Shown here piece by piece: positions 1-29,456 of a stretch of 32,000 nt of DNA (position 1 is the first letter of the stretch; each line of letters starts with the position of its first letter). A model generated the notes under the pieces. It had not been told where the DNA came from. It worked only from the letters and a program-made list of their open reading frames with translations, and did not search any database. This stretch comes from Afipia carboxidovorans OM5 (GTDB lineage Bacteria; Pseudomonadota; Alphaproteobacteria; Rhizobiales; Xanthobacteraceae): NCBI RefSeq assembly GCF_000218565.1, contig NC_015684.1, positions 1,998,829 to 2,030,828 on the forward strand. Reading direction: 5' to 3'. The position numbers and the translations under genes were made by a program.

Positions 1-423
1 GTCTATTTCACCGTGGGCCTCATCACCATCATCGGACTCGCGGCCAAGGACGCGATCCTCATCATCGAGTTCGCGAAGGACCTGCGCGAGAAGGAAGGCA
101 AGTCGCTGCTCACGGCGACGCTGGAAGCCTGCCACCTGCGGTTCCGGCCGATCCTGATGACGGGCTTTGCCTTCGTTTGTGGCGTGCTGCCTATGGTGGT
201 GGCGCATGGCGCCGGCGGCCTCAGCCAGCAGGCGCTCGGCACCGGCGTGATGGGCGGCATGATCGCGGTCGCGATTCTCGCGCTCTTGATGGTGCCGGTC
301 TTCTTCGTCTTCATTCAGGGGCTGTTCGAGAAACCGCCTGAGGAGCCGGAAGCGGTCACCGAAGACCCGTCCCAAGTGCCGGAAGGGCCGGATGCCGCGC
401 CCGCGCCGCAACCCGGTGCCTGA
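1..423 (+). CDS. RND efflux pump inner-membrane permease (AcrB/MexB family), C-terminal fragment; 5' end lies outside the window
   Basis: Frame 1 is open from base 1. The translation GLITIIGLAAKDAILIIEFA...LRFRPILMT...MVPVFF matches the conserved last TM helices of HAE1-type RND pumps, followed by a Pro/Glu-rich tail. Confidence 0.9.
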   Translation, partial: VYFTVGLITIIGLAAKDAILIIEFAKDLREKEGKSLLTATLEACHLRFRPILMTGFAFVCGVLPMVVAHGAGGLSQQALGTGVMGGMIAVAILALLMVPVFFVFIQGLFEKPPEEPEAVTEDPSQVPEGPDAAPAPQPGA

Positions 424-586
424 GGCGATATAATTCCGCTAAAAATATTCCTGTCGACAACTGCGAATATCACAACGGCTTCGTTGCGACGCAGCATACC
501 GAAAAGTCTATTGGTCAGGTTCGGCGGCCAAGCTTACAGTTTTGTGACAAGGCCGGGAGGTCGGACGTTTCGACAGGAGGCACAGC

Positions 587-1924
587 GTGAAGCGCATTCA
601 GTTTGCTCAGATTTTCGCAGCAGTCATGGTGCTTGGGTGGCCGTTAGGGGCTCAGGCACAGGCGATCTCGGGAAAAGTCAGCGTCGTCACCTCCTACTCG
701 AAGGATCTGACCGGCCCGATCAAGAAGGCTTTCGAGAAGGCGAACCCCGGCGTCACGCTCGACGTGCAGAACCGCAATACCCATGCGGGCGTCAAATTCC
801 TGGAAGAGACCAAGTCCAACAATCAGGTCGATCTGTTCTGGGCCTCTGCGCCGGATGCGTTCGAGGCGCTGAAGGCGAAGTCGCTGCTGCAGGTCTATAA
901 GCCCAAGGCGACCGGAATCCCGGAGAAGATCGGGCAATTCCCGATCAACGATCCCGACGGCTACTATTTCGGTTTCGCCGCGTCGGGCTACGGCATCATG
1001 TGGAATGAGCGCTACGTGAAGGCCAACAAGCTGCCCGAGCCGAAGGAGTGGCAGGACCTCGCAGCACCCGCGTATTTCGATCACGTCTCGATCGCGGCTC
1101 CGTCGCGCTCCGGCACCACGCATCTCACCATCGAGACGGTGTTGCAGGGCGAGGGCTGGGCCAAGGGATGGGGCACTATCCGCGAGATGGCCGGCAACTT
1201 CCGTGAAGTCACCGAGCGTTCGTTTGGCGTGCCGGATGGCGTGAACTCCGGTCAGGTCGGCTACGGCATCGTCATCGACTTCTTCGCCTTCTCCTCGCAG
1301 GCGACGGGCTTCCCGGTGAAATTCATCTATCCGAGCGTGACGGCGATCGTCCCGGCCAACATTGCGGTCGTCGCGAATGCGCCGAACAAGGCGGGCGCCG
1401 AAGCCTTTATCGAATTCCTGCTGTCGGAAGCCGGGCAGAACCTGTTGTTCGATCCGGGCATCCGCCGCCTGCCGGTCAACCCGGCGGTCTACAGCAAGGC
1501 TCCGAAGGACTATCCGAACCCCTTCACCGATCCGCGCCTGAACTCGATGGTGAAGTTCGACGTCAAGAAATCGGAATCGCGCAACGACGTGGTCGATGCG
1601 CTGTTCGACCAGACCATTACCTTCCAGATCGCCGATCTGAAACAAACCAAGAAGGCGATCGACACTGCCGCTACGGCGCTTGCGAAAAAGCCGAACCCGC
1701 AGGGCGAGGCGCTTCTGAAGGAGGCGCGCGGCCTGATGGAAGCGATGCCGATCACCGAGGAACAGGCATCGTCCTCCGAGATCGTCGGTGCATTCTCCGG
1801 CGGCAAGAAGAAGGAGAAGGGCGTGCGGCAGGCCGAGCTCGAGCAGCAATGGGCGACCTTTGCAAAGGAGAACAATGCAAAGGCCCGCGCCAAGGCGGAT
1901 GAAGCCCTGAAGCTTGCCAAATAA
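587..1924 (+). CDS. ABC transporter periplasmic substrate-binding protein (family-1 SBP, Fe(III)-like) with a long Lys/Ala/Glu-rich C-terminal extension
   Basis: GTG start 6 nt after AGGAGG. Signal peptide MKRIQFAQIFAAVMVLGWPLGAQAQA. SBP-like body. First gene of an SBP-permease-ATPase operon. Confidence 0.85.
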   Translation: MKRIQFAQIFAAVMVLGWPLGAQAQAISGKVSVVTSYSKDLTGPIKKAFEKANPGVTLDVQNRNTHAGVKFLEETKSNNQVDLFWASAPDAFEALKAKSLLQVYKPKATGIPEKIGQFPINDPDGYYFGFAASGYGIMWNERYVKANKLPEPKEWQDLAAPAYFDHVSIAAPSRSGTTHLTIETVLQGEGWAKGWGTIREMAGNFREVTERSFGVPDGVNSGQVGYGIVIDFFAFSSQATGFPVKFIYPSVTAIVPANIAVVANAPNKAGAEAFIEFLLSEAGQNLLFDPGIRRLPVNPAVYSKAPKDYPNPFTDPRLNSMVKFDVKKSESRNDVVDALFDQTITFQIADLKQTKKAIDTAATALAKKPNPQGEALLKEARGLMEAMPITEEQASSSEIVGAFSGGKKKEKGVRQAELEQQWATFAKENNAKARAKADEALKLAK

Positions 1925-1942
1925 GTTCGGACGACGTCGCGC

Positions 1943-3679
1943 ATGACCGCCGTCGGCTTACAACAGGAACGGCGCGGGACATTCCTGTCCCGTGCCTTCA
2001 GTGGCACGTCGTGGGGTCAGGCCAGCATTGCGCTCCTGATCCTCGCGTTTCTGATCTGCTTCCTGGTCTGGCCGGTCGCAACCGTCATCTGGGTCGCCTT
2101 CACCGAAAAGGGCACCGGCGCGTTCACGCTGGCGAACTTCGTCGATTTCGCGCGGACCGATCTGTTCATCCGCTCGTTCTGGAATTCGTTCTACGTCTCG
2201 GCGATGGCGGTCGTCGGCGCATCGATCCTCGCGCTGCCGCTCGCCTACTTCACCTCGCGCTTCACGTTCCGTGGTGCGGGCGTGATCCAGATCCTCGGTT
2301 TTCTGCCGCTGATCATGCCGCCCTTCGTCGGCGCTGTGGCGCTGCAACTGTTCTTCGGCCGCAACGGCACCGTGAACCTGCTGCTGGACGACTGGCTCGG
2401 CTTCAAGCTCGGCTTCATGGAAGGGCTGAACGGCGTCATCTTCGTTCAGTCGATCCATTATTTCCCGTTCATCCTCATCAATCTCTCCGCGGCGCTGCGA
2501 AACGTCGATCGCTCGATGGAGGAGGCGGCACAGAATCTCGGCTCGCACGGGTTGCGGCTGTTCCGGCGCATCGTGTTTCCGTTGGCGCTGCCGGGTTATG
2601 TCGCCGGCGCCTCGCTCGTGTTCGTGAAAGTGTTCGACGATCTCGCGACGCCGCTTCTTCTCAATGTGAAAGATATGCTTGCGCCGCAGGCCTATCTGCG
2701 CGTCACCTCGATCGGTATCGCCGACCCGATGGGCTATGTGATTTCCGTCGTGCTAATCGTCGCATCGGTCGCCTCGATGTGGGTGTCGTCGCTTGCGACC
2801 CGCAACGTCGATTACGCCACCACCCAGCGTGGCGGCGGTGGCATCGCCAAGCGGAAGCTGCGGCCGCTGGAAATGGCGCTCGCCTATCTGCTGCTGACGG
2901 TGATCATCCTGCTGGTGCTGGCACCGCATTTCGGTCTGGTGTTGTTGTCGTTTGCGACGATCTGGTCGTTCTCGCCGCTGCCCGACGGCTACACCACGGC
3001 GCACTACGCGCGCGTGTTCGGCGAAAGCTCGATCTACATCAAGAACACGCTGCTCTATGCCTCGCTCGCGGGCCTGATCGATATCGTGATCGGCACCGCG
3101 ATCTCCTATCTGGTGTTGCGCTCGAAACTGATGGGTGCGCGGGGGCTCGATCTGCTGGCGATGGCGGCGCTCGCCATTCCCGGCGTCGTGCTCGGCATCG
3201 GCTATCTGCGCGCGTTCTACGGCATTCCGCTATGGGATGGCACGCCGCTCGCCGCGTTCTGGATCGTGATCGTGATCGCATTGGCGATCCGCCGCCTGCC
3301 TTATGCGTTGCGCGCGTGCTACGCGGCGCTCCAGCAGATTTCGGCCTCACTCGAGGAGGCGGCGGAAAACCTCGGCGCGACCAAGGCCTCCACCGTGCGC
3401 CGCATCGTCGTGCCGCTGATGACCGGCGGCATCATGGCGGGCTTCATCACGAGTTTCGCAACAGCGGCGGTCGAGCTCTCCGCCACGCTGATGCTGGTGC
3501 AGGCGAACGAGGATGCGCCGCTCGCCTATGGCCTCTACGTCTTCATGCAGTCGGCCTCGGGTCGCGGGGCAGGCGCGGCGCTTGGCGTCATCGCCGTCGT
3601 CATTGTGGCAATCTCCACGGTCGCGTCGCAATATGTCATCGAGCGCGAGCGCCGCACGAAGACCGGCCACCTTTCGTAA
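1943..3679 (+). CDS. ABC transporter permease, fused double-domain (FbpB/SfuB-like, iron(III)-type)
   Basis: 578-aa polytopic membrane protein with two MetI-type permease halves, the size and layout typical of Fe3+ ABC permeases. Tightly spaced with its neighbours. Confidence 0.88.
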   Translation: MTAVGLQQERRGTFLSRAFSGTSWGQASIALLILAFLICFLVWPVATVIWVAFTEKGTGAFTLANFVDFARTDLFIRSFWNSFYVSAMAVVGASILALPLAYFTSRFTFRGAGVIQILGFLPLIMPPFVGAVALQLFFGRNGTVNLLLDDWLGFKLGFMEGLNGVIFVQSIHYFPFILINLSAALRNVDRSMEEAAQNLGSHGLRLFRRIVFPLALPGYVAGASLVFVKVFDDLATPLLLNVKDMLAPQAYLRVTSIGIADPMGYVISVVLIVASVASMWVSSLATRNVDYATTQRGGGGIAKRKLRPLEMALAYLLLTVIILLVLAPHFGLVLLSFATIWSFSPLPDGYTTAHYARVFGESSIYIKNTLLYASLAGLIDIVIGTAISYLVLRSKLMGARGLDLLAMAALAIPGVVLGIGYLRAFYGIPLWDGTPLAAFWIVIVIALAIRRLPYALRACYAALQQISASLEEAAENLGATKASTVRRIVVPLMTGGIMAGFITSFATAAVELSATLMLVQANEDAPLAYGLYVFMQSASGRGAGAALGVIAVVIVAISTVASQYVIERERRTKTGHLS

Positions 3680-3694
3680 GCGCGGGGGACACTC

Positions 3695-4819
3695 TTGGCA
3701 GATACCATCACCCAGTCCCAGATCGCCGATCCTCAGGCGGGCAAGCCGCAAGGGCTGGCCGTCAAGGCGGTCGATCTCAAGATCGACAATGTCAGCGCGG
3801 CCTATGGCGACAATGTCGTTCTTGACGGCATCAATCTCGACATCCGGCCGGGCGAACTGTTCGCGCTGCTCGGCCCCTCCGGCTGCGGCAAGACCACCTT
3901 GCTGCGACTGATCGCGGGCTTTGCCGATGCGCGGCAGGGCGTCGTTCTGGTGGACGGCAAGGACATCTCGCGGCTGCCGCCATGGAAGCGCGATGTCGGC
4001 ATGGTGTTCCAGTCCTACGCGCTGTGGCCGCATATGACCGTCGGCGACAACGTCGCGTTCGGCCTGCGCGAGCGGCGGTTGCCGCGCGCCGAGATCAAGC
4101 GGCGGGTCGAGGCAGCACTGACCTTCGTCGGGCTGACGAGCCAGATCGACCGCCGCCCGTCGCAACTCTCGGGCGGGCAGCAGCAGCGCGTGGCGCTGGC
4201 GCGGACCATCGCCATCGAGCCGAAGATTCTGTTGCTCGACGAGCCGCTGTCGAATCTGGATGCGAAATTGCGCGTGCAGGTGCGCCGCGAATTGCGTGCG
4301 CTGCAGAAGTCGCTCGGCCTCACCACCGTGATCGTGACGCACGATCAGGAGGAGGCGAATACGATCTGCGATCGCGTCGCTGTGATGAACGAGGGTAAGG
4401 TGCAGCAGGTCGGCACGCCGACCGAGCTCTACGAACACCCGGCCAACCTGTTCGTCGCGCAGTTTCTCGGAACGGCAAACGTCATCGAAGGCAAGTTCAC
4501 CGGTGCCGGATACCAGTCCGACCTCGGCATCATCCTGCCGGTCCCGCGCGGGCTTGCGGTGACGCCGGGCATGAAGCCGGTGTTCCGCCCGCAGGACACG
4601 CAACTTGCGCTGAAGGGGCAATCCGAACCGGGCGGCCCCACAATGCCGGGCGAGATCGTGGAACGGGAATTCCTCGGCAGCACGGTGCGCTACGGCGTGA
4701 AGGCGGGCGCGAGCCACATCTGGATCGACGCGCCATTCCGCTCCGGCGCATCGCTGATGGAGATCGGCTCGGCGGTCGAGGTGACGGTGCCGGTCGACCG
4801 GCTGCTCTGGCTCGCGTGA
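3695..4819 (+). CDS. ABC transporter ATP-binding protein (FbpC/PotA-like)
   Basis: Walker A GPSGCGKTT, signature LSGGQQQRVALAR, Walker B ILLLDEP, H-loop VTHD, and a C-terminal TOBE-like regulatory domain. TTG start 5 nt after GGGGGA. Confidence 0.9.
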   Translation: MADTITQSQIADPQAGKPQGLAVKAVDLKIDNVSAAYGDNVVLDGINLDIRPGELFALLGPSGCGKTTLLRLIAGFADARQGVVLVDGKDISRLPPWKRDVGMVFQSYALWPHMTVGDNVAFGLRERRLPRAEIKRRVEAALTFVGLTSQIDRRPSQLSGGQQQRVALARTIAIEPKILLLDEPLSNLDAKLRVQVRRELRALQKSLGLTTVIVTHDQEEANTICDRVAVMNEGKVQQVGTPTELYEHPANLFVAQFLGTANVIEGKFTGAGYQSDLGIILPVPRGLAVTPGMKPVFRPQDTQLALKGQSEPGGPTMPGEIVEREFLGSTVRYGVKAGASHIWIDAPFRSGASLMEIGSAVEVTVPVDRLLWLA

Positions 4820-4953
4820 TCGCGCTGGCAGGGCTCGTTTAGGGCGCACGCCGGTGCGGCATCGCCTCTATCGGCGGGCAATTGAATACTCTACCCGCGC
4901 CCGGTACGATCCGCGCACCATTGACCGCCATGCCCTCCCGTGAGGACATTTTC

Positions 4954-6387
4954 ATGCCGTTCCGTCACCTGACCACTATGCGCCGCCGCTCGTTCCTCAC
5001 CGGCAGCGCCGCCCTTGCCGCAGCCGCGACGCTGCCGCGCGCGGCGTTCGCGCAGATGCCGGCAGTGAAGGAATTCAAACTGACGGCCGCGCAGGGCAGA
5101 ACCTCATTCGCCGCCGACGTCATCCCGTCAACCGAGGTGTGGGAGTATAACGGGCAGGTGCCGGGGCCTGAGATCCGCGTCAAGCAGGGCGAGCGTGTCC
5201 GCATCGTCGTGAAGAACGGGTTGGCGGAGGAGACCACCGTGCATTGGCATGGGCTGCGGCTGCCGAACGCGATGGACGGCGTTCCGCATCTCACCCAGAA
5301 GCCGATCGCAACCGGCGACAGCTTCACCTACGAGTTCGATTGCGTCGATGCCGGGACGTTCTGGTATCACCCGCATTCGCGCAGCTCGGTGCAGGTCGGC
5401 CGCGGCCTCTCCGGTCCGTTCATCGTCGAGGAGCGTGAGCCGATCGCGGTCGATCGCGATATCACCTGGGCGCTCAACGACTGGCGCCTTCTCAAGGATG
5501 CCTCGATCAGCAACGATTTCGGCAACATGCATGATATGAGTCATGCGGGCCGCATCGGCAATTTCATCACCGTCAACGGCATCTCGCCGGAGACGTTCGA
5601 GGTGCGAAGCGGCGAGCGCATCCGGCTGCGGCTCATCAACACGTCAAACGCGCGCATCTTCGGCCTCACCTTCGAGGGCCATGCGCCGACCATCGTGGCG
5701 ATGGATGGCCATCCGGTTACGCCGCATGCGCCGGAAAAGGGGCAGGTCGTGATCGGGCCGGCGATGCGCGTCGATCTCGTGATCGATATGACCGCCGCGC
5801 CGGGCAGCCGCTTCAAGGTGATGGACTCGTTTTACCAGCAGCAGGAATTCCGGCTGTTTCACATGGTCTACGCCGACAAGCCGCTGCGCGCCGAGCCGCG
5901 CACCGATGCGATCGCGCTTCCACATAACCCGGTGCCCGAGCCGGACCTCGCCACGGCGCAACGCCATGACGTGGTGCTGGGCGGCGGCATGATGGGGCAG
6001 ATGGCTTCGGCACAAGTCGGCGGCGAGACGATGGATATCCGCACCATGCTGCGGCATGGGCTGATCTGGGCAATCAACGGCGTGGCCTCGACCGAGCATG
6101 TGCATGAGCCGATGGCGACGCTGAAGCGCGGCACCTCGCATATCCTTGCCATGGAAAACGAGACGGCGTGGTGGCACCCGATGCACCTTCACGGCCATGC
6201 GTTCCGCGTGCTGAGCCGCAACGGCGTGCCGACTAGGCATCGCGAGTGGCGGGACACGGTGTTGGTCGCGCCGCGCGAGCGTGTCGAGGTGGCGTTCGTC
6301 GCCGATAACCCCGGTGACTGGATGTTTCACTGCCATGTGCTCGAGCATCAGGCCGGCGGTATGATGGGCACGGTGCGCGTCATCTGA
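4954..6387 (+). CDS. Tat-exported three-domain multicopper oxidase
   Basis: Twin-arginine signal MRRRSFLTGSAALAAAATLPRAAFA. Copper-ligand motifs HWHG, WYHPH, HPMHLHGH and HCHVLEHQAGGMM. ATG at 4954 lies 7 nt after GAGGA; the ORF is open from 4882 and 4930 is an alternative start. Confidence 0.85.
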   Translation: MPFRHLTTMRRRSFLTGSAALAAAATLPRAAFAQMPAVKEFKLTAAQGRTSFAADVIPSTEVWEYNGQVPGPEIRVKQGERVRIVVKNGLAEETTVHWHGLRLPNAMDGVPHLTQKPIATGDSFTYEFDCVDAGTFWYHPHSRSSVQVGRGLSGPFIVEEREPIAVDRDITWALNDWRLLKDASISNDFGNMHDMSHAGRIGNFITVNGISPETFEVRSGERIRLRLINTSNARIFGLTFEGHAPTIVAMDGHPVTPHAPEKGQVVIGPAMRVDLVIDMTAAPGSRFKVMDSFYQQQEFRLFHMVYADKPLRAEPRTDAIALPHNPVPEPDLATAQRHDVVLGGGMMGQMASAQVGGETMDIRTMLRHGLIWAINGVASTEHVHEPMATLKRGTSHILAMENETAWWHPMHLHGHAFRVLSRNGVPTRHREWRDTVLVAPRERVEVAFVADNPGDWMFHCHVLEHQAGGMMGTVRVI

Positions 6388-6442
6388 CGTCAGCGCGGAG
6401 ACGGCGCGGGCAGAGCGGAAGAATAAGGGCGGAATAAGAAAT

Positions 6443-6477
6443 GGCCGGGCGGTTCGTCACCCCCCGGCCAATTTTTC
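6443..6477. terminator. Stem-loop with flanking T/A runs between convergent genes (possible bidirectional terminator)
   Basis: GGCCGGG...CCCGGCC stem followed by AATTTTTC. It sits between the multicopper oxidase (+) and the beta-barrel gene (-). Confidence 0.5.
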
Positions 6478-6516
6478 AAAGACCAATGATAGCCCGGTTC
6501 GTCAGGCGTATCGGAC

Positions 6517-7119
6517 TCAGGCGTGTTCGACGCTCGGGTGATAGCGCTTGACGCGACGAAGCGTGTTCTTGTCGGTGTGGTGCATCTCCTCGCCGGTCGC
6601 CGCGAGCTTCAGGAGAAGATCGGACGTGTAGCTGAAGGTGCCGTCATCGTTGATGGTGAAGGTGCTCTTGAAGTCGCGGATTTCCGCGCGCTCCAGCAAA
6701 TATTTATTCTGCAGGATGCCGTAGTGCGGCGCGCCGGGCTTTGCATCGAACGTCAAAACCTTGTCGCCGAGTTTGGCGCTGCTGCCGGCGAGAATTGCGA
6801 TACCGCGGCCGAACACCACGGTGCGCATCACCTCGCAGTTTGTCTTGTCCCACAACAGGAAGCCGAGCTCGTCGTGGAACGGGTCCATCGCTTCCTCGCC
6901 ATGGCGCCATGCGGTCATGCCGTAGTGCAGGCCCCATAGCTCCTGACGGCCGTTTTCCTGCACCGGAATCGGCTTGAACCAGGCCTTCTCGAAATAGGTG
7001 GTCTCGCCCGTGATGTCGTCCTTGTTGTGGTACGACAGATCGACCCCGACATCGCCTTCCCATTCGCCGACAAGCGGCGTCAGCGGCCCCAGTTTCTGGG
7101 GTCCGGTTACTTTCGTCAT
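6517..7119 (-). CDS. Heme-binding beta-barrel domain protein (DUF1794 / nitrobindin-THAP4-like)
   Basis: LVGEWEGDVGVD...FHDELGFLLWD pattern resembles the L..L.G.W.G.G and HDE.G motifs of this family as I remember them. ATG at 7119 follows GAGGGA; the ORF is open to 7137. Confidence 0.6.
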   Translation of the reverse strand: MTKVTGPQKLGPLTPLVGEWEGDVGVDLSYHNKDDITGETTYFEKAWFKPIPVQENGRQELWGLHYGMTAWRHGEEAMDPFHDELGFLLWDKTNCEVMRTVVFGRGIAILAGSSAKLGDKVLTFDAKPGAPHYGILQNKYLLERAEIRDFKSTFTINDDGTFSYTSDLLLKLAATGEEMHHTDKNTLRRVKRYHPSVEHA

Positions 7120-7600
7120 TCTCAAGTCCCTCGTCATATTGCGCCCGAGAGCAGACGTCCCTCGTCTTCAGGGCTCTCGGACATAGATCGTTTTGCGATC
7201 TAATGCTCAAAACATTCATTATGACGCACGGCAATGTTGCAAAATGGATTCGGCTGTTTTCATCCACGCGCTGTGCCAAAAATGCACCACCGATGCATCT
7301 TAAGCTGGCTACCGCGCTACCGTTGTATCGCTGTACGAGACATGATGAGGGTGAACAGCGGACGGCGGCGCAACCGCGCGCTGAGGCGACGGCACGGGCA
7401 TCGCTCGAAACGCGAACGTCGTTACGGAGAGGTCACGAAAAATCGCCGGTAGCGGTGCCATTCACCGGGCGGAAGGTGGTCGCGGATCTGGCGACAGCAT
7501 TCCCCGAAATGCGCGACAGCCCTCAGCCGCGCATGGCCGCCCAGCGAGCGGACTGCTCCTGCCGAACAGCGGAACGTAGAGAAAACTGCCGGCGAGGCTC

Positions 7601-7729
7601 CTATCGCAGGAAGCCGGCCAGCCCCAGCGCCAGATAGACCAGAAGGGCGATCAGAAAAGCGTGCCCAAGCCGCTCTCCGATACGCTCCGGAGTTCCGTAC
7701 TGGGTTTCAGTCGTCGCGCTTCCCGTCAT
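7601..7729 (-). CDS. Possible 42-aa small membrane protein (hypothetical)
   Basis: ATG 5 nt after GGAG. The C-terminal half, FLIALLVYLALGLAGFL, is a single hydrophobic helix. It lies in an otherwise gene-less 730-bp gap. Confidence 0.3.
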   Translation of the reverse strand: MTGSATTETQYGTPERIGERLGHAFLIALLVYLALGLAGFLR

Positions 7730-7868
7730 GATTGCTCCGGCGGTTCTGTTAAGGCCGAAGCAATAACCGGAAAGTTCGGGGCTTCTCGACGTGACAACCT
7801 GCCGCGCGAACACATGTCTCGGGCTGCGTGCAGGCTATTGATTTTACTGGAAATATAGAAACGCTGAG

Positions 7869-8294
7869 TTAGCCCTTGGCCAGTGGGCCATGGTCATGGC
7901 TTCCATCGGCCAGCGTTTCGATGATCCGGCATTCGGCCACCCGGCCGCATGCACATTCCGCGATCATCCGGGATAGCTCCGCCTTCAAACTCGTGAGCGC
8001 CGCGATGCGCTTTTCAACCTCCACCAGACGCGCCTTCGCGATCTCATCGGCCACGGCACAAGGCTGATCCGGATCGTCCTGAAGAAGCAGGAGCGTGCGA
8101 ATGGCGTCGAGGTCAAAGCCCAACTCGCGCGCATGACGAATGAAGGTGAGGCGGGCCACGGCGTCGTTGCCGAAGCGCCGTTGCTGGCCTTGGGTGCGGG
8201 GCGGTTGGGGCAAAAGGCCGATCCGCTCGTAATAGCGGATGGTCGGCACCTTGACGTCAGTCCGCTGCGACAGTTCGCCGATCGAAAGATTCAT
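7869..8294 (-). CDS. MerR-family metal-responsive transcriptional regulator
   Basis: N-terminal HTH MNLSIGELSQRTDVKVPTIRYYERIGLL, a coiled-coil dimerisation helix, and a C-terminal Cys/His cluster (ECACGRVAEC...HDH). Divergent from a metal efflux gene. Confidence 0.9.
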   Translation of the reverse strand: MNLSIGELSQRTDVKVPTIRYYERIGLLPQPPRTQGQQRRFGNDAVARLTFIRHARELGFDLDAIRTLLLLQDDPDQPCAVADEIAKARLVEVEKRIAALTSLKAELSRMIAECACGRVAECRIIETLADGSHDHGPLAKG

Positions 8295-8321
8295 CCCAAG
8301 CCTTTGAGCTTATCAAGCCTC

Positions 8322-8352
8322 TTGAACCTCTAGTGACTATAGGGATTAGCGT
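8322..8352 (+). promoter_or_regulatory. MerR-type promoter/operator for the CDF gene: TTGAAC-N19-TAGCGT with an internal dyad
   Basis: -35 TTGAAC at 8322-8327 and -10 TAGCGT at 8347-8352, with the over-long 19-bp spacer characteristic of MerR-activated promoters. Imperfect palindrome CCTCTAG-TGA-CTATAGG at 8327-8343. RBS AAGGAGA before ATG 8376. Confidence 0.55.
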
Positions 8353-8375
8353 GCCTCTGGAAAAGGAGACACGCG

Positions 8376-9110
8376 ATGGCCGATCACTGCTGCAATGACC
8401 AGGCGAGCGCCTGCTGCGCCCCGCCGCCATTGAACCTTCCGAAGCAGCATGCGGGGCAGCAACATCGCGACACATGCGGGTGCTCCGAAGGCGTGCCGGT
8501 CTTCGACGGCATGGACGCGCGCTACAAACGCGTGCTCTGGATCGTGATTTCCATCAACGGTGCGATGTTCTTCACCGAGATGATCGCGGGCCGGATGGCG
8601 CAGTCACAGGCGCTGCAAGCCGACGCGCTGGATTTTCTCGGCGATACGGTCACCTATGGCCTCAGCCTCGCGGTCATTGGCGCATCGTTGCGCGCGCGTG
8701 CAACGGCCGCGCTGTTCAAGGGACTGTCGCTGAGCGTGATGGGTCTCTGGGTGTTCGGCTCCACGATCTACCGGACACTCGTGGTCGGCATGCCGAGCGC
8801 CGAAGTGATGGGGGCGATCGCGTTCCTGGCGCTTGCCGCCAATCTCGCATCGGTGTTGCTGCTGATGCGCTACAAAGACGGCGACGCCAATGTGCGCTCC
8901 GTCTGGCTTTGCTCGCGCAATGACGCCATCGGCAACGTGGCGGTGATGGGCGCGGCACTCGGCGTGTGGGGAACGGCGACGGCCTGGCCCGATCTCATCG
9001 TTGCCGGGCTCATGGCAGGAATTTTCCTGACCTCATCGGCGCAGATTTTGCGACAGGCGTGGCGCGAATATCGCGAGGGCGGGCAGCCAAGCTCCGTGGC
9101 GGCGGAGTGA
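8376..9110 (+). CDS. Cation diffusion facilitator (CDF) family divalent-metal efflux transporter
   Basis: Cys/His-rich N-terminus (MADHCCNDQASACC...CGCSEG). Six predicted TM segments with CDF-like D/H-containing TM2 and TM5 (ADALDFLGD, SRNDAIGN). Paired with the MerR regulator. Confidence 0.85.
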   Translation: MADHCCNDQASACCAPPPLNLPKQHAGQQHRDTCGCSEGVPVFDGMDARYKRVLWIVISINGAMFFTEMIAGRMAQSQALQADALDFLGDTVTYGLSLAVIGASLRARATAALFKGLSLSVMGLWVFGSTIYRTLVVGMPSAEVMGAIAFLALAANLASVLLLMRYKDGDANVRSVWLCSRNDAIGNVAVMGAALGVWGTATAWPDLIVAGLMAGIFLTSSAQILRQAWREYREGGQPSSVAAE

Positions 9111-9224
9111 TGCGATCAGAGCTCTCGCAGGATTGATTGTGCGTTAGCGATGCGAACGACGTCGACGCTAGCTTCAGCGGCGAGCCGCCCGCGGCTGTCC
9201 GATAAAAGCGAAAGGGACGTTCGC

Positions 9225-9548
9225 TCAGGCCGGTTTGCGGCCTTTCTTCCTCTTCCCATCAATCAAGACGGCCTGCTGCCATCGGCTGGGCGCCTTGTCG
9301 GTGCGATGAATGCAGCCCGCCCAGCAGCAGGGGCGCTTCTTGCCCTCCAGCAATTCCTCACAGGTCCGCTCGATGCGGCGCTGGCGCGTCTTTGCTTGCT
9401 TTGCGTCGTCCACCCAGCAGATGAACTCGTTACGGCCAAGCGGCGTCAGGCTCTCCCACAGCGCAAAGACTTTCTCATCAGTTCGCAAGGCGGCTTGAAG
9501 ATCTTCGCGTGCTCTGTGGACGGTGCCATGTGGAAAAGCATTCGCCAT
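9225..9548 (-). CDS. YdeI/OmpD-associated family protein
   Basis: The segment DLQAAL...ALWESLTPLGRNEFICWVDDAKQAKTRQRRIERTCEELLEGKKRPCCW matches the family's AK..eTR.rRi signature as I remember it. ATG at 9548 follows GGAGG; the ORF is open to 9563. Confidence 0.72.
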   Translation of the reverse strand: MANAFPHGTVHRAREDLQAALRTDEKVFALWESLTPLGRNEFICWVDDAKQAKTRQRRIERTCEELLEGKKRPCCWAGCIHRTDKAPSRWQQAVLIDGKRKKGRKPA

Positions 9549-9703
9549 GCAACCTCCAAACAATGCAGCCGGTAAGCTTGGTTACACCACCCAAGAGAAT
9601 GACGATTTCCGCCATGGGAAGCTATCGGCGGCATACAGCGGGACACACTGGGCCCGAAGGAGTACTATCTACCCTATAGCTTTCTTAAGCAGCAGTTCTC
9701 TGC

Positions 9704-11983
9704 TCAAGTGCAGGCCTTCACCATCTTCTTGTAATGATCCTTTCCGACCTCCTTGATGAAGTTGATACCTGCATCGGCCGCGCGGATGGCTTCTTCCAAC
9801 GTAAGGTCTGGTAGGGTGCTAAGCCCATCAATTGTACCGTGAGACTCAATTTGAACGAGGCGTTCGAGGGCCCGAACGTCGAGCTTATCTTTCACTGCCT
9901 CGTGGTGATCCCCAAGCGCACCAGCAAAATTGGATTGCCCTGGAGAACAGAAGGTGGCGAACATCTCAAGGAGCTTGCGGGTCGCGTTTGGAAGTAGAAA
10001 CATATAGTCGGTCGTCTTCTTCTGCGCCGCGTCCTGAACTATGCTGAAAAGATAGTGATATTCACTATCATAATTCACAAGCAGCTTGTGCATAAGTATG
10101 AGCGAGGTGACGCGGTCATTTCCATCTCCCGAGGCCCGACAATCAAGCGATAGGAGTGCCGCCACCTTTTTGGTTTCATCTCGTTTCTGCAAGTTTTGAA
10201 ACTCACGCTTCACCATGTTCATAAAGCTTGTGTTGTGGGTAAGAACGATGACCTGAGCGCACTTTTTGGTCATGCGTGTCATCAGGCTGTAAGCGAAAGT
10301 CCGAGCCGTGGTATCGAGGCTCGATATCGGATCATCAATAACCAGTACCAGGTCTTCAGCTTCACGGCCCTCGGCGGCCAGCAGAGTCAAAAAATAGCAG
10401 AAGGAAACAGCCGTACGTTCCCCTTCGCTTAGTTCTGTCGCAGGCCTCCCGTTTGGGCGAAAAATTTTGTATCCGCCATCTTCTGCAACAAGGCGAAGTT
10501 CCTTATGCCCAAGGTAAGCCCAAATGAGCTCGTTCATTTTGTCTGCGCCGACACCGTTGTCTTGCAAGTCGTTGCGAAGTGCCAGTTGGTGGTCAAAAAG
10601 GCTTTTCTCTTCTGTTTGCGCGGTTGTCTGCTCCGTCTCAGCACCTTCGACAGCCTTCTGAAGACGGTCCCATTCACTTTGATTAGTCGCCAAGACGTGG
10701 GCTTCGATTTTCGTGAACGCGTCTTTTTGCATTGCTGCAAAGCTTACAAAGGCGTCATTGTGCTTCTGCACGGCCGCCGCCAAGACTGCCTCGATGGTCG
10801 CGTATTCTGTGAGCCAGTTGTCGAAGTCAAAGCTTGCAATTTCCCCCGCAACCACCCCTGCTTTGGTGGGGTTTGCAATTCTCGCTTCCAAGCCTTTGAG
10901 AAGTTCTCCGACATACACACCGATCTGCTTAATGGCCGTCTCCATAAGCGCCCGGCTCTTGGCAAAAAATTTCCGTTCCTCTGCGGTAATCTCAACTTCC
11001 TTGGGGATGGAACGATAAAACTCTCTTAGATCCTGTTGGTGCTCCTGCCCGCGCTTCACGGCATCTTCCAAAGATCTCAGTGCGTCGGTCCACGATTTGT
11101 CGAACAAAACTCGGAGCCGAGCTCTGCGATCCTCCGAAAAAAGATTGCCGCAAAGAAGACAGTCCGACACGCCGTGCTCGTCATGGTAGTGAAGCCCTTC
11201 TTCTACCCACCGAAGAACATTCGAATGCGCTTCAAACTCATTCAGAGCGATTCCTGAAACACTTTGTGTGAGAAGCGACTGACTAGCTTTGAACCAATTG
11301 GCCAGCCCCTCAGGGAGACTTGGGGAAAAAGCAAGGCTTGGGAGCGGTTCCCGTTGAGTAAGAAGCCCTTGATGCATTTTGAGTTTATCTTCGGGCAGCT
11401 TTTTCTCCGGGCCAAAGGATACTTTTGAATAGTGCCCCTGAATCTTCCGCGCGTCGTAGGACTGTGTGTAGCTGCTTGAAGAGGCCACCTCGCGGATATT
11501 ACGGGCCACTCGAGTTTTAAAGTCTGACAAGTCCTTGTCAGCCTTTCTCTTAGCGCTCTCCTTTGCCTTAGTTTTCTGTTTCGCGGCCAAAAGCTTCGGT
11601 GTTATCTCATCATATTCTTTACGAGCACCGACCTTCTTTTCGCTCAGATAGGCAATTCCCTTTGTGCTACTAGCATCCCATTCAAAATTTCTGGATACGA
11701 AGTCCGTATTGAAAACCAGAAGATTATTCCCAAACGGGTTTGAGATAGGGTCTTGCGTAACAATCGTTCCGTCTGACGTTTCGATTTTAAAGGTGGTTTC
11801 TTTTGGTAACCGATCTTCTAAGTTTCCCCGTTCTATCGACGAAAACACTCTAGATAAGGTGGTCTTTCCGGAACCATTAAACCCATAGATCAAAGTGCGG
11901 GGAGCTAATTGCAAATCCTCTGAAGCGCAAAAGTCTTTCCATACTCCCGCTTGTTTAAGCTCTGAAAGCCTCCGGACAATCAT
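9704..11983 (-). CDS. AAA_13-family ABC-type ATPase with CxxC coiled-coil insert and PrrC/RloC-like C-terminal region (candidate anticodon-nuclease-type defence protein)
   Basis: Walker A GFNGSGKTT, a long coiled-coil insert containing DCLLCGNLF, ABC signature LSEGERTA, Walker B LVLVIDDPISSLD, H-loop VLTHN, and C-terminal NATRKLLEMF...VQIESHG (R-x3-E...H). Visibly AT-richer than its flanks. I prefer the start at MIVRRLSEL (11983), with 12028 as an alternative. The 888-aa ORF reaching 12370 is rejected. Confidence 0.75.
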   Translation of the reverse strand: MIVRRLSELKQAGVWKDFCASEDLQLAPRTLIYGFNGSGKTTLSRVFSSIERGNLEDRLPKETTFKIETSDGTIVTQDPISNPFGNNLLVFNTDFVSRNFEWDASSTKGIAYLSEKKVGARKEYDEITPKLLAAKQKTKAKESAKRKADKDLSDFKTRVARNIREVASSSSYTQSYDARKIQGHYSKVSFGPEKKLPEDKLKMHQGLLTQREPLPSLAFSPSLPEGLANWFKASQSLLTQSVSGIALNEFEAHSNVLRWVEEGLHYHDEHGVSDCLLCGNLFSEDRRARLRVLFDKSWTDALRSLEDAVKRGQEHQQDLREFYRSIPKEVEITAEERKFFAKSRALMETAIKQIGVYVGELLKGLEARIANPTKAGVVAGEIASFDFDNWLTEYATIEAVLAAAVQKHNDAFVSFAAMQKDAFTKIEAHVLATNQSEWDRLQKAVEGAETEQTTAQTEEKSLFDHQLALRNDLQDNGVGADKMNELIWAYLGHKELRLVAEDGGYKIFRPNGRPATELSEGERTAVSFCYFLTLLAAEGREAEDLVLVIDDPISSLDTTARTFAYSLMTRMTKKCAQVIVLTHNTSFMNMVKREFQNLQKRDETKKVAALLSLDCRASGDGNDRVTSLILMHKLLVNYDSEYHYLFSIVQDAAQKKTTDYMFLLPNATRKLLEMFATFCSPGQSNFAGALGDHHEAVKDKLDVRALERLVQIESHGTIDGLSTLPDLTLEEAIRAADAGINFIKEVGKDHYKKMVKACT

Positions 11984-12142
11984 ATCCCGCGCGCCCCACA
12001 TCAGAATTGCAACAGTCAACGTACTCATACCAATAGAGGCTAGCAACCATCGGGAGAGCAGGCGCGTTGGAGCAATGAAAAGTAGAAAGGGTGCGTCTGA
12101 CTGCCTCGCAGCACGGCAGCGTCGGAGGGCCTGAGGCCCAAG

Positions 12143-12161
12143 TGGCGGAAGGGGTGTCCGC
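12143..12161. repeat. 19-bp direct repeat TGGCGGAAGGGGTGTCCGC, copy 1 (putative att site of the island)
   Basis: Identical 19-mer at 29438-29456. Each copy lies about 100-140 bp upstream of a homologous P4-type integrase gene. It contains the hairpin GCGGA-AGGGGTG-TCCGC. Confidence 0.7.
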
Positions 12162-12225
12162 TGGAAACCCAACCTTAGTGGTTTTATCGTCCGATTGCCT
12201 TGTAAAAAAGCACTAAAGTCAGTAA

Positions 12226-12254
12226 TGCCGGTATGGTGGTTATGACAACCGGCA
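12226..12254. promoter_or_regulatory. Inverted repeat TGCCGGT-N15-ACCGGCA immediately upstream of int
   Basis: 7-bp perfect arms ending 7 bp before the int ATG. An analogous 8-bp-arm inverted repeat precedes the second int gene. Confidence 0.4.
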
Positions 12255-12260
12255 GAGAAA

Positions 12261-13433
12261 ATGGCCCGTAACAAGCTGAGCGAAACGAAGATCAAGGCGA
12301 TTTCCAAGCCGGGAATATACGGCGACGGTGACGGCCTATTCATTCGAGTCCAAAAGACCGGCAGCCGCAACTGGCTGTTCGTGTATCGCCGCGGTCAACA
12401 GCGTAATGAGATCGGGCTTGGTGGATATGGACAAGGCACCGCACCGGTTTCGCTGCCGCTGGCCCGAGAGAAGGCCGACGCAATCCGGCAGCAACTCGCC
12501 CGAGGTGAGGATCCCCGCGCATCGCGAAACGCGATCAAACCGAAGACGTTTGGCGAGGTGATGGAGCAACTGCTCACGGCCAAGGAATCCGAGTGGACCA
12601 ACCCCAAGCACGCTGAGCAATGGAAGATGACGCTGCGGACGTACGCCAAGCCGCTGCACCGTCTGCCGGTGGCTGATATCGTGATGGGCGACGTTAAAGA
12701 CTGTATCCTGCCACACTGGGCCGAACGGCCCGAGACGGCGGCACGTCTGCGGTCCCGCATTCAAGCGGTGATCGACTACGCAATCGCCCATGAGTGGCGC
12801 TCGGCTGGGAATCCGGCCCGGTGGGGAGGTTTGCTTGAGAAGGTAATGCCCAAGCGCCAAAAGTTATCGCGCGGCCACCATGCCGCGCTGGCCTATGCGG
12901 ACGCGCCCCAGACGATCGAGGCGCTGCGGCATTCTTCGGGTACGGCGGCGCGAGCGGTGGAGTTTATAGCGCTGACGGTGGCTCGGTCGGGCGAGGCCCG
13001 GTACTCGACCTTCGCAGAGGTGGACGTGAAGGCCAAAACATGGACCGTCCCCGCCGAGAGGATGAAGGCGGGTAAGGAGCATATCGTCCCGCTCACAGCC
13101 CGCGCGCTCCAGATCGTCGAGGCCATGAGGCAACGGGCAACCGGCGATTATATCTTCGGCGGTGCACAAGACAGTAAGCCGATCAGCGATACCGCAATGG
13201 TGAAGGCGCTACGGTTGGCATCGCCAGATAAGGCCGCGACTCTCCACGGGCTACGATCGACGTTTCGGGACTGGGCCGGCGACAAGACGAAATTTCCACG
13301 CGACATAGCGGAAATGGCATTGGCGCATGCGGTCGGGGACGAAACCGAGCGCGCCTATCGGCGAAGCACCGCTCTCGCCCAGCGTAGGAAACTGATGGAT
13401 GCGTGGGAAAGGTATCTAAATACCGACAAATAA
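12261..13433 (+). CDS. int: Tyrosine recombinase/integrase, P4/CP4-57 type with N-terminal Arm (DUF4102-like) domain
   Basis: N-terminus MARNKLSETKIKA...GDGDGLFIRV...WLFVYR. Catalytic-region motifs TVARSGEAR, HGLRSTFRDWAG and ERAYRR. Confidence 0.95.
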   Translation: MARNKLSETKIKAISKPGIYGDGDGLFIRVQKTGSRNWLFVYRRGQQRNEIGLGGYGQGTAPVSLPLAREKADAIRQQLARGEDPRASRNAIKPKTFGEVMEQLLTAKESEWTNPKHAEQWKMTLRTYAKPLHRLPVADIVMGDVKDCILPHWAERPETAARLRSRIQAVIDYAIAHEWRSAGNPARWGGLLEKVMPKRQKLSRGHHAALAYADAPQTIEALRHSSGTAARAVEFIALTVARSGEARYSTFAEVDVKAKTWTVPAERMKAGKEHIVPLTARALQIVEAMRQRATGDYIFGGAQDSKPISDTAMVKALRLASPDKAATLHGLRSTFRDWAGDKTKFPRDIAEMALAHAVGDETERAYRRSTALAQRRKLMDAWERYLNTDK

Positions 13434-25718: not shown

Positions 25719-26621
25719 TCAAATTGCTGGCCAGTGTTTTGTGCTGAGGTACCGTTCGTGAGCGTCGATCAGTTCGACTACTCGACTTCGGAGGTCATCC
25801 AATAGCGGGGTAAAATGGTCGCTTAATTCGTCTTCACCGATAAACTGAAAGTAAATTTTAAGCGTCTCGTTGATGACTAGCGCCAACGTGGTGACCATCT
25901 GCGGTCTCGGAGTGCGCCAGTTCAGTTTAGGTTCGAAGTTAGCTTCGCCATCCCACTCAACGTGGTTCGCATAGATTTCCTGCCAATTCCCGTGGATGCT
26001 ATGAGAGCCGCCGCCGAATGCTGCCAGATACAATTCTTCGAGATCAACATCCCGCGCTTTGTCAAAAGTGTTTTTCCCGCCCCATGGCCGTTTGTCTTTC
26101 AAGTCGATCTCGTCTAGCGCAATCCGAGCGCTTTTGGCGGCACGCTCGATAGACTGAAGCATTCGGTCTTCGATCGGAAGGACAACTCCGTTGCGTGCGT
26201 GAATGGCTTTGCGGATTTTGTCTCTCAGCTTCCGCTCATGTCGCAGGGAATATGCAACGTAAGAATCAATCAATGACTTGGAAAAATTCTTTATTAGAAA
26301 TCGAATATTGACAGTTGTCTCGAAAACAAGCCTCGCCAGTATCATGCTGGTTTCGTCTCGACGTTGGCAAACCTGATCGAGAAAGGAGTCGAGTAGCTTA
26401 TATTGGCGGACCATGTTGCCACCAACCGCTGCCTTGTCTCGATCCCATGTCGGTTCGGCCCCCATGGTTCCTGCAGCAACGCAACAATAGCTTGCGGTTT
26501 CAACCATCAGGGAGACGGCAAGCGAGGTAAATTCGGATTCAGACTTGAAGGATAGGACAGTTTCCTGGCGCACTTCGACGCGCTCAATTTTGGGGACAGA
26601 GTGTCCGAGCATACAAATCAA
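25719..26621 (-). CDS. Hypothetical 300-aa all-alpha protein, partner of the upstream nuclease-like gene (possibly DUF5677-like; unverified)
   Basis: TTG at 26621 overlaps the upstream stop (TTGA); ATG at 26612 is an alternative start. Helix-rich sequence with the GGGSHSIHGNWQEI motif. AT-rich. Confidence 0.65.
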   Translation of the reverse strand: MICMLGHSVPKIERVEVRQETVLSFKSESEFTSLAVSLMVETASYCCVAAGTMGAEPTWDRDKAAVGGNMVRQYKLLDSFLDQVCQRRDETSMILARLVFETTVNIRFLIKNFSKSLIDSYVAYSLRHERKLRDKIRKAIHARNGVVLPIEDRMLQSIERAAKSARIALDEIDLKDKRPWGGKNTFDKARDVDLEELYLAAFGGGSHSIHGNWQEIYANHVEWDGEANFEPKLNWRTPRPQMVTTLALVINETLKIYFQFIGEDELSDHFTPLLDDLRSRVVELIDAHERYLSTKHWPAI

Positions 26622-28090
26622 GCCTTAGAGCCCGATGGTTTGTTGTCGTCGCGCGCATCGATAAGCACGATATCCTTACTGTCTGTCAGTTTAAGTTTCT
26701 TCAAAATTGCATTGACCTTACGAAGTTCAGCAATACTGAAATAGATAATCACCTTAATCGCGTTTTTCGCATCGCTCGCGGCTTGGTAAATCGGTACTTG
26801 CTTCTCAAGGTTTCGTTCTAGCTGTGTATTCTTTGCCAGCTTCATTTCGACAAGTGTTTTGTCGTCGGCACCTCGTGAGATTTTGAAGTCAACTGGCCCT
26901 CTGCCATCGTTCGCCTCGGTGCCAACATCTGAAGGCGTCCCGAACCAGACTAGGCGATAAAGGATTTGAAGGTCCTTTTCCCGCTGAATTGGTTTTCCGT
27001 CGTGATAAAATAGCCGGTGTCCGCCCTTGCTCTCGATGGCATCCTTCAGATAGCGGACACGGGCATGCGCCTCTTCATAGGTGCCGCCGCCGGTTCCGTA
27101 GAAGGCGGTCTTATGAAGCAGGGTGTTTTGAATTTCGGCGATCTGCCGGATGAATATGTATTCGGTTGCAAGTACCTTCTCGGCGCTGAGGTCTGCAGCT
27201 TCGTCTCCGCGCTGTTCCTTCAACTTGATGTAGTAATCGATGAGCTGCGGGAATTCTAACAAAGTTCTTCTGGCAGCTTCCGAACGCTCTTTCGCGCTGG
27301 GACGGCGTCGACGACCGGGTCTATCAAGGATCTTGTGGAAATAATTCTCAACCTGCGCCCGTAGCTGTGAATCTGGAATGGCTGTCGGAATTTCCTGAAA
27401 GTCGCCAACCAAATCGCCTTTGTTGATCCAGTTTTCATCTCTGGTCAGGATATCCTTCGGAGTCAGGATGACGAAATCACCATTAACCCACGGCAGTGCA
27501 TATGTGGTTCGCTCCCATGTCTCGGTCTCGTAATTGAATCGAGTCTTCTCTACAGCCACCTGCCGCACGTCGTTAGGCTTCAGGTGCTGCGCAGCGAACT
27601 TTTCAGTATATCGACACAGATAATCCTTAATTAGATTAGTCGTGAAATCGCTGATGTTGTCGCGTCCGACACCATCGGAGATCAAGCACACCTTTTCCAA
27701 GTGGCTTCCCTCGGTGATTCCTTCCTCGCCGAAGTCTGAGAACAAGCTGTGCAGATTACTGTGTAAGGCCCGAGCGAAATCCATCCCGAGTCCGGTCCCG
27801 CCGTTGCCGCTAATCGAGAAACCGAGCCAGTTCTGCTTCACCTCACTGAAGCAGTACCAGCTCGATAGCAGCGCATCGCTGATCGCCCCCTTCGCAGATC
27901 GATCGCGGAGGAATACTAGGTAATCGATCATCGAGTCGTGAAGGGTGCGGTACTCATCCTTCTCGCTGTTAAACAGCAGGAAGGGATCGATAAATAAGGG
28001 AAGGTCATTAACGATCGAAATGTTCAGGGCACCGCAACTATCTAGCGTTCCCGCATCGATTCCGAAATACTCATTAAAAAAGGTGGCCAC
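26618..28090 (-). CDS. Hypothetical 490-aa protein: unknown N-terminal domain plus C-terminal RecB/PD-(D/E)xK-like nuclease motifs
   Basis: GTG start 7 nt after GAGG. The C-terminus carries E371, D401 (GPVDF), E415-x-K417 (VEMK) and Q431-x3-Y435 (QVPIY) in the order and spacing of RecB-family nucleases. AT-rich. Confidence 0.72.
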   Translation of the reverse strand: MATFFNEYFGIDAGTLDSCGALNISIVNDLPLFIDPFLLFNSEKDEYRTLHDSMIDYLVFLRDRSAKGAISDALLSSWYCFSEVKQNWLGFSISGNGGTGLGMDFARALHSNLHSLFSDFGEEGITEGSHLEKVCLISDGVGRDNISDFTTNLIKDYLCRYTEKFAAQHLKPNDVRQVAVEKTRFNYETETWERTTYALPWVNGDFVILTPKDILTRDENWINKGDLVGDFQEIPTAIPDSQLRAQVENYFHKILDRPGRRRRPSAKERSEAARRTLLEFPQLIDYYIKLKEQRGDEAADLSAEKVLATEYIFIRQIAEIQNTLLHKTAFYGTGGGTYEEAHARVRYLKDAIESKGGHRLFYHDGKPIQREKDLQILYRLVWFGTPSDVGTEANDGRGPVDFKISRGADDKTLVEMKLAKNTQLERNLEKQVPIYQAASDAKNAIKVIIYFSIAELRKVNAILKKLKLTDSKDIVLIDARDDNKPSGSKA

Positions 28091-29437: not shown

Positions 29438-29456
29438 TGGCGGAAGGGGTGTCCGC
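29438..29456. repeat. 19-bp direct repeat TGGCGGAAGGGGTGTCCGC, copy 2 (junction between the two tandem islands)
   Basis: Identical to 12143-12161. It lies 139 bp upstream of the second integrase gene. Confidence 0.7.

Follow-up and report, generated by a model that had tools for sequence, protein, structure and literature searches.

In a 32,000-nucleotide (nt) stretch of the genome of Afipia carboxidovorans OM5 (contig NC_015684.1, positions 1,998,829 to 2,030,828 of the forward strand; hereafter the window), we identified a minus-strand gene that very probably encodes a stand-alone RloC-family anticodon nuclease, a single polypeptide that would serve as both sensor and effector. We refer to it as rloC. 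The RloC family was described in 2008, and close homologues of this protein are already labelled as RloC by one annotation pipeline: ‘wobble nucleotide-excising tRNase’, which is the JGI name for RloC, is attached to homologues at 76–83% identity. The member described here is an ordinary one and is uncharacterised.

As defined by Davidov and Kaufmann, RloC proteins are 658–897 amino acids (aa) in length, combine PrrC-like ABC ATPase motifs with a helical insert that has CX2C in its central loop, and carry the C-proximal pattern Arg-X3-Glu-X36–52-His, often with a Ser before the His (PMC2610378). At 759 aa, the A. carboxidovorans protein falls within this size range, and its Walker A, signature, Walker B/D-loop and switch His are all present. 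A helical insert splits the ATPase head and holds a CX2C in a loop, where it forms a putative zinc hook, and the C-terminal part reads R669-x3-E673-x41-S714-H715. The Walker A also ends without the terminal Arg that occurs in PrrC and not in RloC (PMC3458546). Judged by published residue numbers, K40, C275, D550, R669, E673 and H715 are collinear with residues that have been mutated in the Geobacillus enzyme (K44, C291, D572, R692, E696 and H737, respectively), and the motifs H-x7-C-x-(F/L)-C-G and KHN are common to this protein and RloC in a supplementary alignment recovered by optical character recognition (OCR).

Profile searches agree with this assignment. Pfam AAA_13 matches the protein at 397 bits (cut-off 36) over profile positions 14–703 of 713, and rloC is the sole gene in the genome above that cut-off. 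The top PADLOC model, PDC-S06, matches at full length with 453 bits; the label denotes a candidate class of single-gene AAA_13 proteins put forward on bioinformatic grounds, rather than a characterised system, and appears to overlap RloC. The PADLOC PrrC model matches residues 532–733, in the C-terminal third, with 63 bits, and NCBIfam returned no specific model, only weak ABC-transporter matches. A large protein search recovered full-length relatives at 60–85% identity, the named ones being from Pelagibacterium, Stappia, Yoonia, Celeribacter, Hyphomonas and Thalassospira. By accession, the clade could not be linked to the Labrenzia aggregata RloC of the founding paper, and a cluster look-up returned no names. 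One metagenomic protein of 1,121 aa (P0089) carries superfamily-1 helicase domains (PF13086 and PF13087) together with an RloC portion sharing 79% identity with the present protein, and may represent a fusion or a mis-assembly.

Conservation was assessed in a close alignment of 38 sequences (31–85% identity) and in a distant set of 54 full-length homologues (22–82% identity) from many phyla, including a Methanocorpusculaceae archaeon; aligned with the reference, the distant set comprises 55 sequences. Invariant in the close alignment are Walker A, C275, C278, SEGE, DDPxSSLD, THN, R669, R708, S714 and H715, and the ATPase motifs GSGKTT, LSEGE, VIDDPISSLD and THN are kept throughout both sets. 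The CxxC is similarly constant, in 38/38 close homologues and 55/55 sequences of the distant alignment. In the full-length AlphaFold2 model (mean predicted local distance difference test (pLDDT) score of 83.3), long helices interrupt the ABC head and make up an insert of about 375 aa, from the helix at residues 117–166 through that at 476–491. The modelled placement of the CxxC between two long helices has the geometry expected of a zinc-hook apex. The top sequence matches in the Protein Data Bank (PDB) are to Rad50, and the top fold matches are to Rad50, SMC heads, Lamassu LmuB, PARIS AriA and the retron I-A ATPase.

By profile comparison, the C-terminal domain is homologous to the anticodon-nuclease domain of PrrC, with its catalytic residues (R669, E673, R708 and S714–H715) intact. 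A profile was built from 11 bona fide PrrC genes that score 430–500 bits to the PADLOC PrrC model (alignment A3), and hhalign aligned the profile of our family to it over 188 columns (96.9% probability, E = 1.9e-10). In this comparison R669, E673, R708 and H715 are matched to residues that do not vary in PrrC, namely R281, E285, R314 and H321, numbered as in the first PrrC sequence of A3. All of the 54 distant homologues have the CxxC, N666, R669, E or D at 673, and H715, and residue 673 is E or D in every sequence of the close set as well. H715 is conserved in 100% of the distant alignment and S714 in 54 of its 55 sequences; at position 708, 38 of the 55 have R and 12 have K. The Rx4–6H signature is a HEPN motif, by which the nuclease domains that PrrC and RloC carry have been placed in the HEPN superfamily (PMC3710099). 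Modelled alone, the domain has a pLDDT of 90.1 and is all-alpha past a beta-hairpin.

These results bear out what the first-pass annotation had read from the letters of the window. It had described an RloC/PrrC-like AAA_13 ATPase, which the Pfam match and the published traits of RloC uphold; a Rad50-like zinc-hook layout with a CxxC, which agrees with the loop position in the model and the invariance of the cysteines; and an R-x3-E with a downstream His like the PrrC/RloC triad, which is conserved in the family. The checks that it had proposed included searches against PF13166 and the RloC and PrrC families, which gave the AAA_13 and PrrC matches above, and an alignment of the triad with PrrC, which put R669, E673 and H715 on invariant columns.

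Table 1. Features of rloC and its surroundings, in window coordinates unless stated otherwise
Feature	Position	Strand	Basis
Intact coding sequence of rloC, without internal stops; 759 aa plus stop (probable start)	9704..11983	-	Open reading frame and start shared by the homologue set
Putative 5' leader, 45 nt; if coding, would give MSTLTVAILMWGARD, absent from homologues	11984..12028	-	Homologue comparison
Walker A / P-loop GFNGSGKTT (K40), ending in T	11858..11884	-	Homologue alignment
Largely helical insert, residues 117-491, splitting the ABC head; predicted coiled-coil arm	10511..11635	-	AlphaFold2
CLLC (C275, C278), putative zinc hook, in loop between helices 242-270 and 284-324	11150..11161	-	Alignments and model
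ABC signature LSEGE, residues 518-522	10418..10432	-	Homologue alignments
Walker B and D-loop LVLVIDDPISSLD (D550, D551, D557)	10313..10351	-	Homologue alignments
H-loop / switch THN (H583)	10232..10240	-	Homologue alignments
Predicted C-terminal anticodon-nuclease (HEPN-class) domain, residues 604-759, beta-hairpin then all-alpha	9707..10174	-	hhalign, AlphaFold2
RKLLE, with R669 and E673 of the catalytic triad	9965..9979	-	Alignments
RLVQIESH, R708-x6-H715, HEPN Rx4-6H motif; S714-H715 gives the triad His	9839..9862	-	Alignments
Low-GC islet: gene plus about 98 nt on its upstream side and 15 nt on its downstream side	9689..12081		DNA homology to closest foreign copy
Distal att copy TGGCGGAAGGGGTGTCCGC, 19 nt; rloC starts 160 nt to its left	12143..12161	+	Repeat search
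Second att copy, at the junction of islands A and B	29438..29456	+	Repeat search
tRNA-Ser(UGA), 15 kb right of the window end	L009 15016-15105 (extended 47016-47105)	-	3' end TGGCGGAAGGGGTG equals repeat core

Within the PrrC/RloC group of anticodon nucleases, the sequence features support an RloC-type and not a PrrC-type protein. PrrC, the tRNA-Lys anticodon nuclease of the Escherichia coli prr locus, shares the ABC motifs, the C-terminal nuclease domain, and the catalytic R/E/H with the second R. However, PrrC is only 341–416 aa in length and has neither coiled coil nor zinc hook, its Walker A reads GTGKTR (GKTR in 11/11 of the PrrC sequences retrieved) in place of GSGKTT, and it always lies within a type I restriction–modification (R-M) operon that silences it, whereas rloC is accompanied by no hsd operon. 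PrrC also nicks the anticodon loop without excising the wobble base. With RloC the protein shares the whole order of elements, from Walker A through the helical insert with its apical CxxC, signature, Walker B/D-loop and H-loop to R-x3-E...S-H, and most RloC genes are likewise stand-alone, low in GC content and laterally transferred. The differences are that this protein is 45 residues shorter than the characterised enzyme compared and belongs to an alphaproteobacterial clade.

The neighbours of rloC are an integrase gene, ydeI (a YdeI/OmdA-family gene, Pfam OmdA), and a CDF efflux gene accompanied by its MerR regulator. No R-M genes flank rloC; the first-pass annotation had already remarked on the lack of flanking type I R-M genes. 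In the whole genome, no HsdS-family (PF01420) match was found and the N6_Mtase matches were weak (31–38 bits). From these searches, the strain seems to have no type I R-M system, which makes it unlikely that rloC has a type I partner working in trans. The first-pass annotation had set this apart from the classical prr context; the lack of an R-M neighbour is nevertheless the rule for RloC and not a departure from the family, because R-M linkage was reported for only 8 of the 72 founding RloC genes. The authors of that study argued that the internal zinc-hook/ATPase switch permits lateral transfer without an external silencer (PMC2610378). Homologous loci have unrelated neighbours: two of them have housekeeping genes beside the homologue, and another has a divergent type I hsdRSM cluster. 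We considered a partner gene and rejected it, given that, among the homologous loci examined, the neighbours change from each to the next.

rloC lies within the variable tract of a tRNA-Ser hotspot and is part of neither of the two integrase islands there. From left to right, the region consists of ydeI, the rloC segment (9558–12142), an att copy, island A with a 390-aa integrase, an att copy, island B with a 405-aa integrase, and an att site within the tRNA-Ser gene. The 19-nt repeat has exactly two copies in the genome, compared with none in 100 shuffles, and it begins with 14 nt that belong to the 3' end of tRNA-Ser(UGA). Because the tRNA 3' end is the repeat core, the two integrase islands are arranged in tandem at tRNA-Ser(UGA). 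Directly past this gene, GC content climbs to 0.64–0.67. Searches of the window with ARAGORN and Rfam found no tRNA or other RNA gene as an att target.

Exact-protein look-ups of rloC and ydeI yielded the contigs that were informative about the layout of the locus. One Logan contig (L118, from SRR26088199) is 100% identical to the window and joins positions 3869–12161 directly to 29438 onward, so that it retains rloC and lacks exactly the 17.3-kb island A; it represents either a strain without island A or an excision product. Because this contig loses island A yet keeps rloC, the gene lies outside the island. A second Logan contig (L126, from SRR22956012) comes from a close relative that is 94.7% identical across CDF–ydeI and has neither rloC nor the islands. 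There, ydeI is followed by an att-like sequence (TGGCGGAAGGGGCCGCC), a 319-aa repeat-rich gene (TPR-like by eye) and the 3' end of tRNA-Ser. The arrangement in record CP001196.1, which we take to be Oligotropha carboxidovorans OM5, is identical to that of the window. The tRNA-Ser hotspot thus offers a natural series: both islands with rloC, one island with rloC, and neither. Species-level relatives were uninformative as to an empty site, with merR–CDF alone being syntenic.

A plausible origin for rloC is as the remnant of an older island or as a defence islet at the hotspot. We searched for an att copy to the left of the gene and found none, with matches of up to three mismatches occurring at chance level; because no att copy bounds rloC on the left, the older-island origin is no more than plausible. 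The first-pass annotation had put the gene directly outside the left att repeat and had suggested an earlier insertion or defence islet. The position is confirmed by the contig in which rloC stays in place and island A is precisely absent. The suggestion about origin fared less clearly: the relative without rloC, which provides the comparison with strains lacking the segment that had been recommended, has a different small att-flanked occupant at the site, which favours it, and the missing left att copy makes that support only partial. At the low-GC cargo end of island A, we also observed a 490-aa protein (window 26618–28090, minus strand) whose N-terminal half matches PADLOC PDC-M36A with 73 bits, next to a 300-aa DUF5677 protein.

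Base composition and homology show that rloC was horizontally acquired as a 2.4-kb low-GC cassette. The GC content of the gene is 0.497, compared with 0.628 in window positions 1–9500 and 0.56 in the neighbouring island, in line with the earlier description of the gene as AT-richer than the core genes to its left. A close orthologue was found in 0 of 24 same-genus species genomes sampled (best, 33%), in contrast to 80% identity in one genome from another family. Foreign copies at 77–84% nucleotide identity occur in other alphaproteobacterial families, and four of them have a GC content of 0.52–0.53 between flanks of about 0.60. The closest, at 84% DNA identity, is in the record behind protein P0004, which is named Pelagibacterium halotolerans. 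No conserved cassette ends or repeats were found, and in every locus the homology stops at or just outside the open reading frame (ORF). It is conceivable, and in our view very unlikely, that the clade circulates as a bare cassette of about 2.4 kb that consists of this one gene, lacks a mobility gene and conserved ends, and here arrived at a hotspot that also gathers tail-less phage satellites, with the DNA-end sensor of RloC triggered by, or tuned to, the replication and packaging of the satellites or of their helper phages. If true, this would imply a functional link beyond co-location.

Public RNA sequencing (RNA-seq) data suggest that the rloC region is transcribed and that transcription crosses the island junction at an appreciable level. 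Four runs, taken from two samples, each have one contig that extends from about 9.06–9.19 kb to 14.1–14.2 kb, with a mean word depth of 55–66. Along this contig (window 9061–14200) lie the genes ydeI and rloC, the att repeat, the integrase gene of island A, and alpA. The adjacent CDF gene is fragmentary in the RNA-seq contigs, at a depth of 0–7. A promoter and terminator scan gave matches at chance level.

If rloC acts as do the enzymes of Geobacillus kaustophilus and Acinetobacter baylyi, the nuclease would normally be silent. Free DNA ends, arising from double-strand breaks under genotoxic stress or phage attack, would stimulate the ATPase, and ATP hydrolysis and the state of the zinc hook would jointly switch the nuclease on. 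The tRNA anticodon loop would then be cut 3' and subsequently 5' of the wobble base, excising that base, a lesion that would not easily be reversed by phage tRNA-repair enzymes. With the transient loss of particular tRNAs, translation would stall and the infected cell would no longer support phage growth (PMC2610378, PMC3458546, PMC3874168). Because the switch would be internal, rloC would need no partner and could move alone. The gene adds a clean natural example of a prediction of the RloC literature, namely a tRNase that silences itself and moves by itself; were its mechanism to be confirmed, it would be one already known.

Several points weigh against assigning rloC to this family and mechanism. 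The tRNA cleavage, DNA-end trigger, zinc response and phage protection that we attribute to it by analogy are drawn from two distant orthologues, and the comparison with characterised RloC rests on published residue numbers, motif rules and the OCR-derived supplementary alignment. PADLOC lists the family only as a ‘candidate’ (PDC-S06). A Foldseek search of the C-terminal domain model against the PDB gave a best E value of 0.46, with a Csm6' match at 3.3, a profile of the domain had no match in the PDB, and Pfam assigned only AAA_13 to it; because the domain has no significant PDB match, the HEPN fold rests on motifs and literature. The RNA evidence consists of assembled contigs, without strand or local depth.

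A rival reading is a protein of the wider ABC ATPase plus HEPN group that is unlike the characterised RloC enzymes in function, one that cuts other RNAs (messenger RNA, ribosomal RNA or other tRNAs) without wobble excision or that is switched on by something other than DNA ends. The protein shares only 22–30% identity with distant members of the family, RloC has no counterpart of the tRNA-recognition region of PrrC, and natural substrates vary even between the two studied enzymes, from tRNA-Glu and tRNA-Gln in A. baylyi to a broad set for the Geobacillus enzyme in E. coli. However, every regulatory and catalytic motif of RloC is kept, in the same relative position, and we judge a different function to be unlikely, although deserving of some weight.

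The founding paper noted that, where a strain has no R-M system, its RloC orthologue may in some cases be inactive, and an inactive relic kept by chance beside the island array would fit the missing HsdS-family match, as well as the absence of both a mobility gene of its own and a left-hand att copy. Such decay is nonetheless highly improbable for a gene whose ORF is intact and retains all of the family-invariant residues, whose identical protein occurs on 18 contigs, and whose region is covered by RNA-seq contigs.

The weak PADLOC matches to LmuB, AriA and PtuA, together with the structural similarity of the model to LmuB, AriA and the retron I-A ATPase, raise the idea of a sensor ATPase from a two-gene defence system such as Lamassu, PARIS or Septu, with an effector that is encoded elsewhere or was lost. 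These matches are confined to the ABC head, whereas the protein bears a nuclease domain of its own; no adjacent gene is conserved among homologues, and ydeI is a core gene that is also present in the relative without rloC. We give this idea almost no credence. Equally hard to credit is a Rad50/SbcC-type DNA-repair ATPase without an RNase role: although Rad50 heads are the best PDB matches by sequence and fold, and in Rad50 and SbcC the ABC head is likewise interrupted by an antiparallel coiled coil that has a CxxC zinc hook at its apex, those proteins have much longer arms, an Mre11/SbcD nuclease partner and no C-terminal RNase domain, whereas no Mre11/SbcD-type nuclease gene adjoins rloC or its homologues in their loci and this protein carries the extra domain with PrrC homology and catalytic residues.

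Returning to the RloC-family nuclease itself, we re-examined the extent of its gene. The first-pass annotation had given a coding sequence at 9704–12028; the long minus-strand ORF with its stop end at 9704 is correct, and read from 12028 it encodes 774 aa that contain all of the motifs then quoted (GSGKTT, LSEGER, VIDDPISSLD, LTHN, DCLLCG, NATRKLLEMF and IESHG), but the start probably lies farther downstream. Approximately 120 homologues are 757–768 aa in length and have the N terminus MI(I/V)xR, which aligns to residue 16 of the 774-aa translation, and the PADLOC profile alignments open at residues 16–18 of this form. Because homologues of about 759 aa open with MI(I/V)xR, the most likely start, on sequence comparison, is the ATG at 11983, 45 nt inside 12028. 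Public gene calls of the same ORF (window 9704–12370) use four different starts (765, 774, 829 and 863 aa) under the generic deposited name ‘AAA family ATPase’, and the longest overlaps the integrase gene on the opposite strand. For annotation, where the result matters most, the ORF can take the name RloC, with a product of 759 aa.

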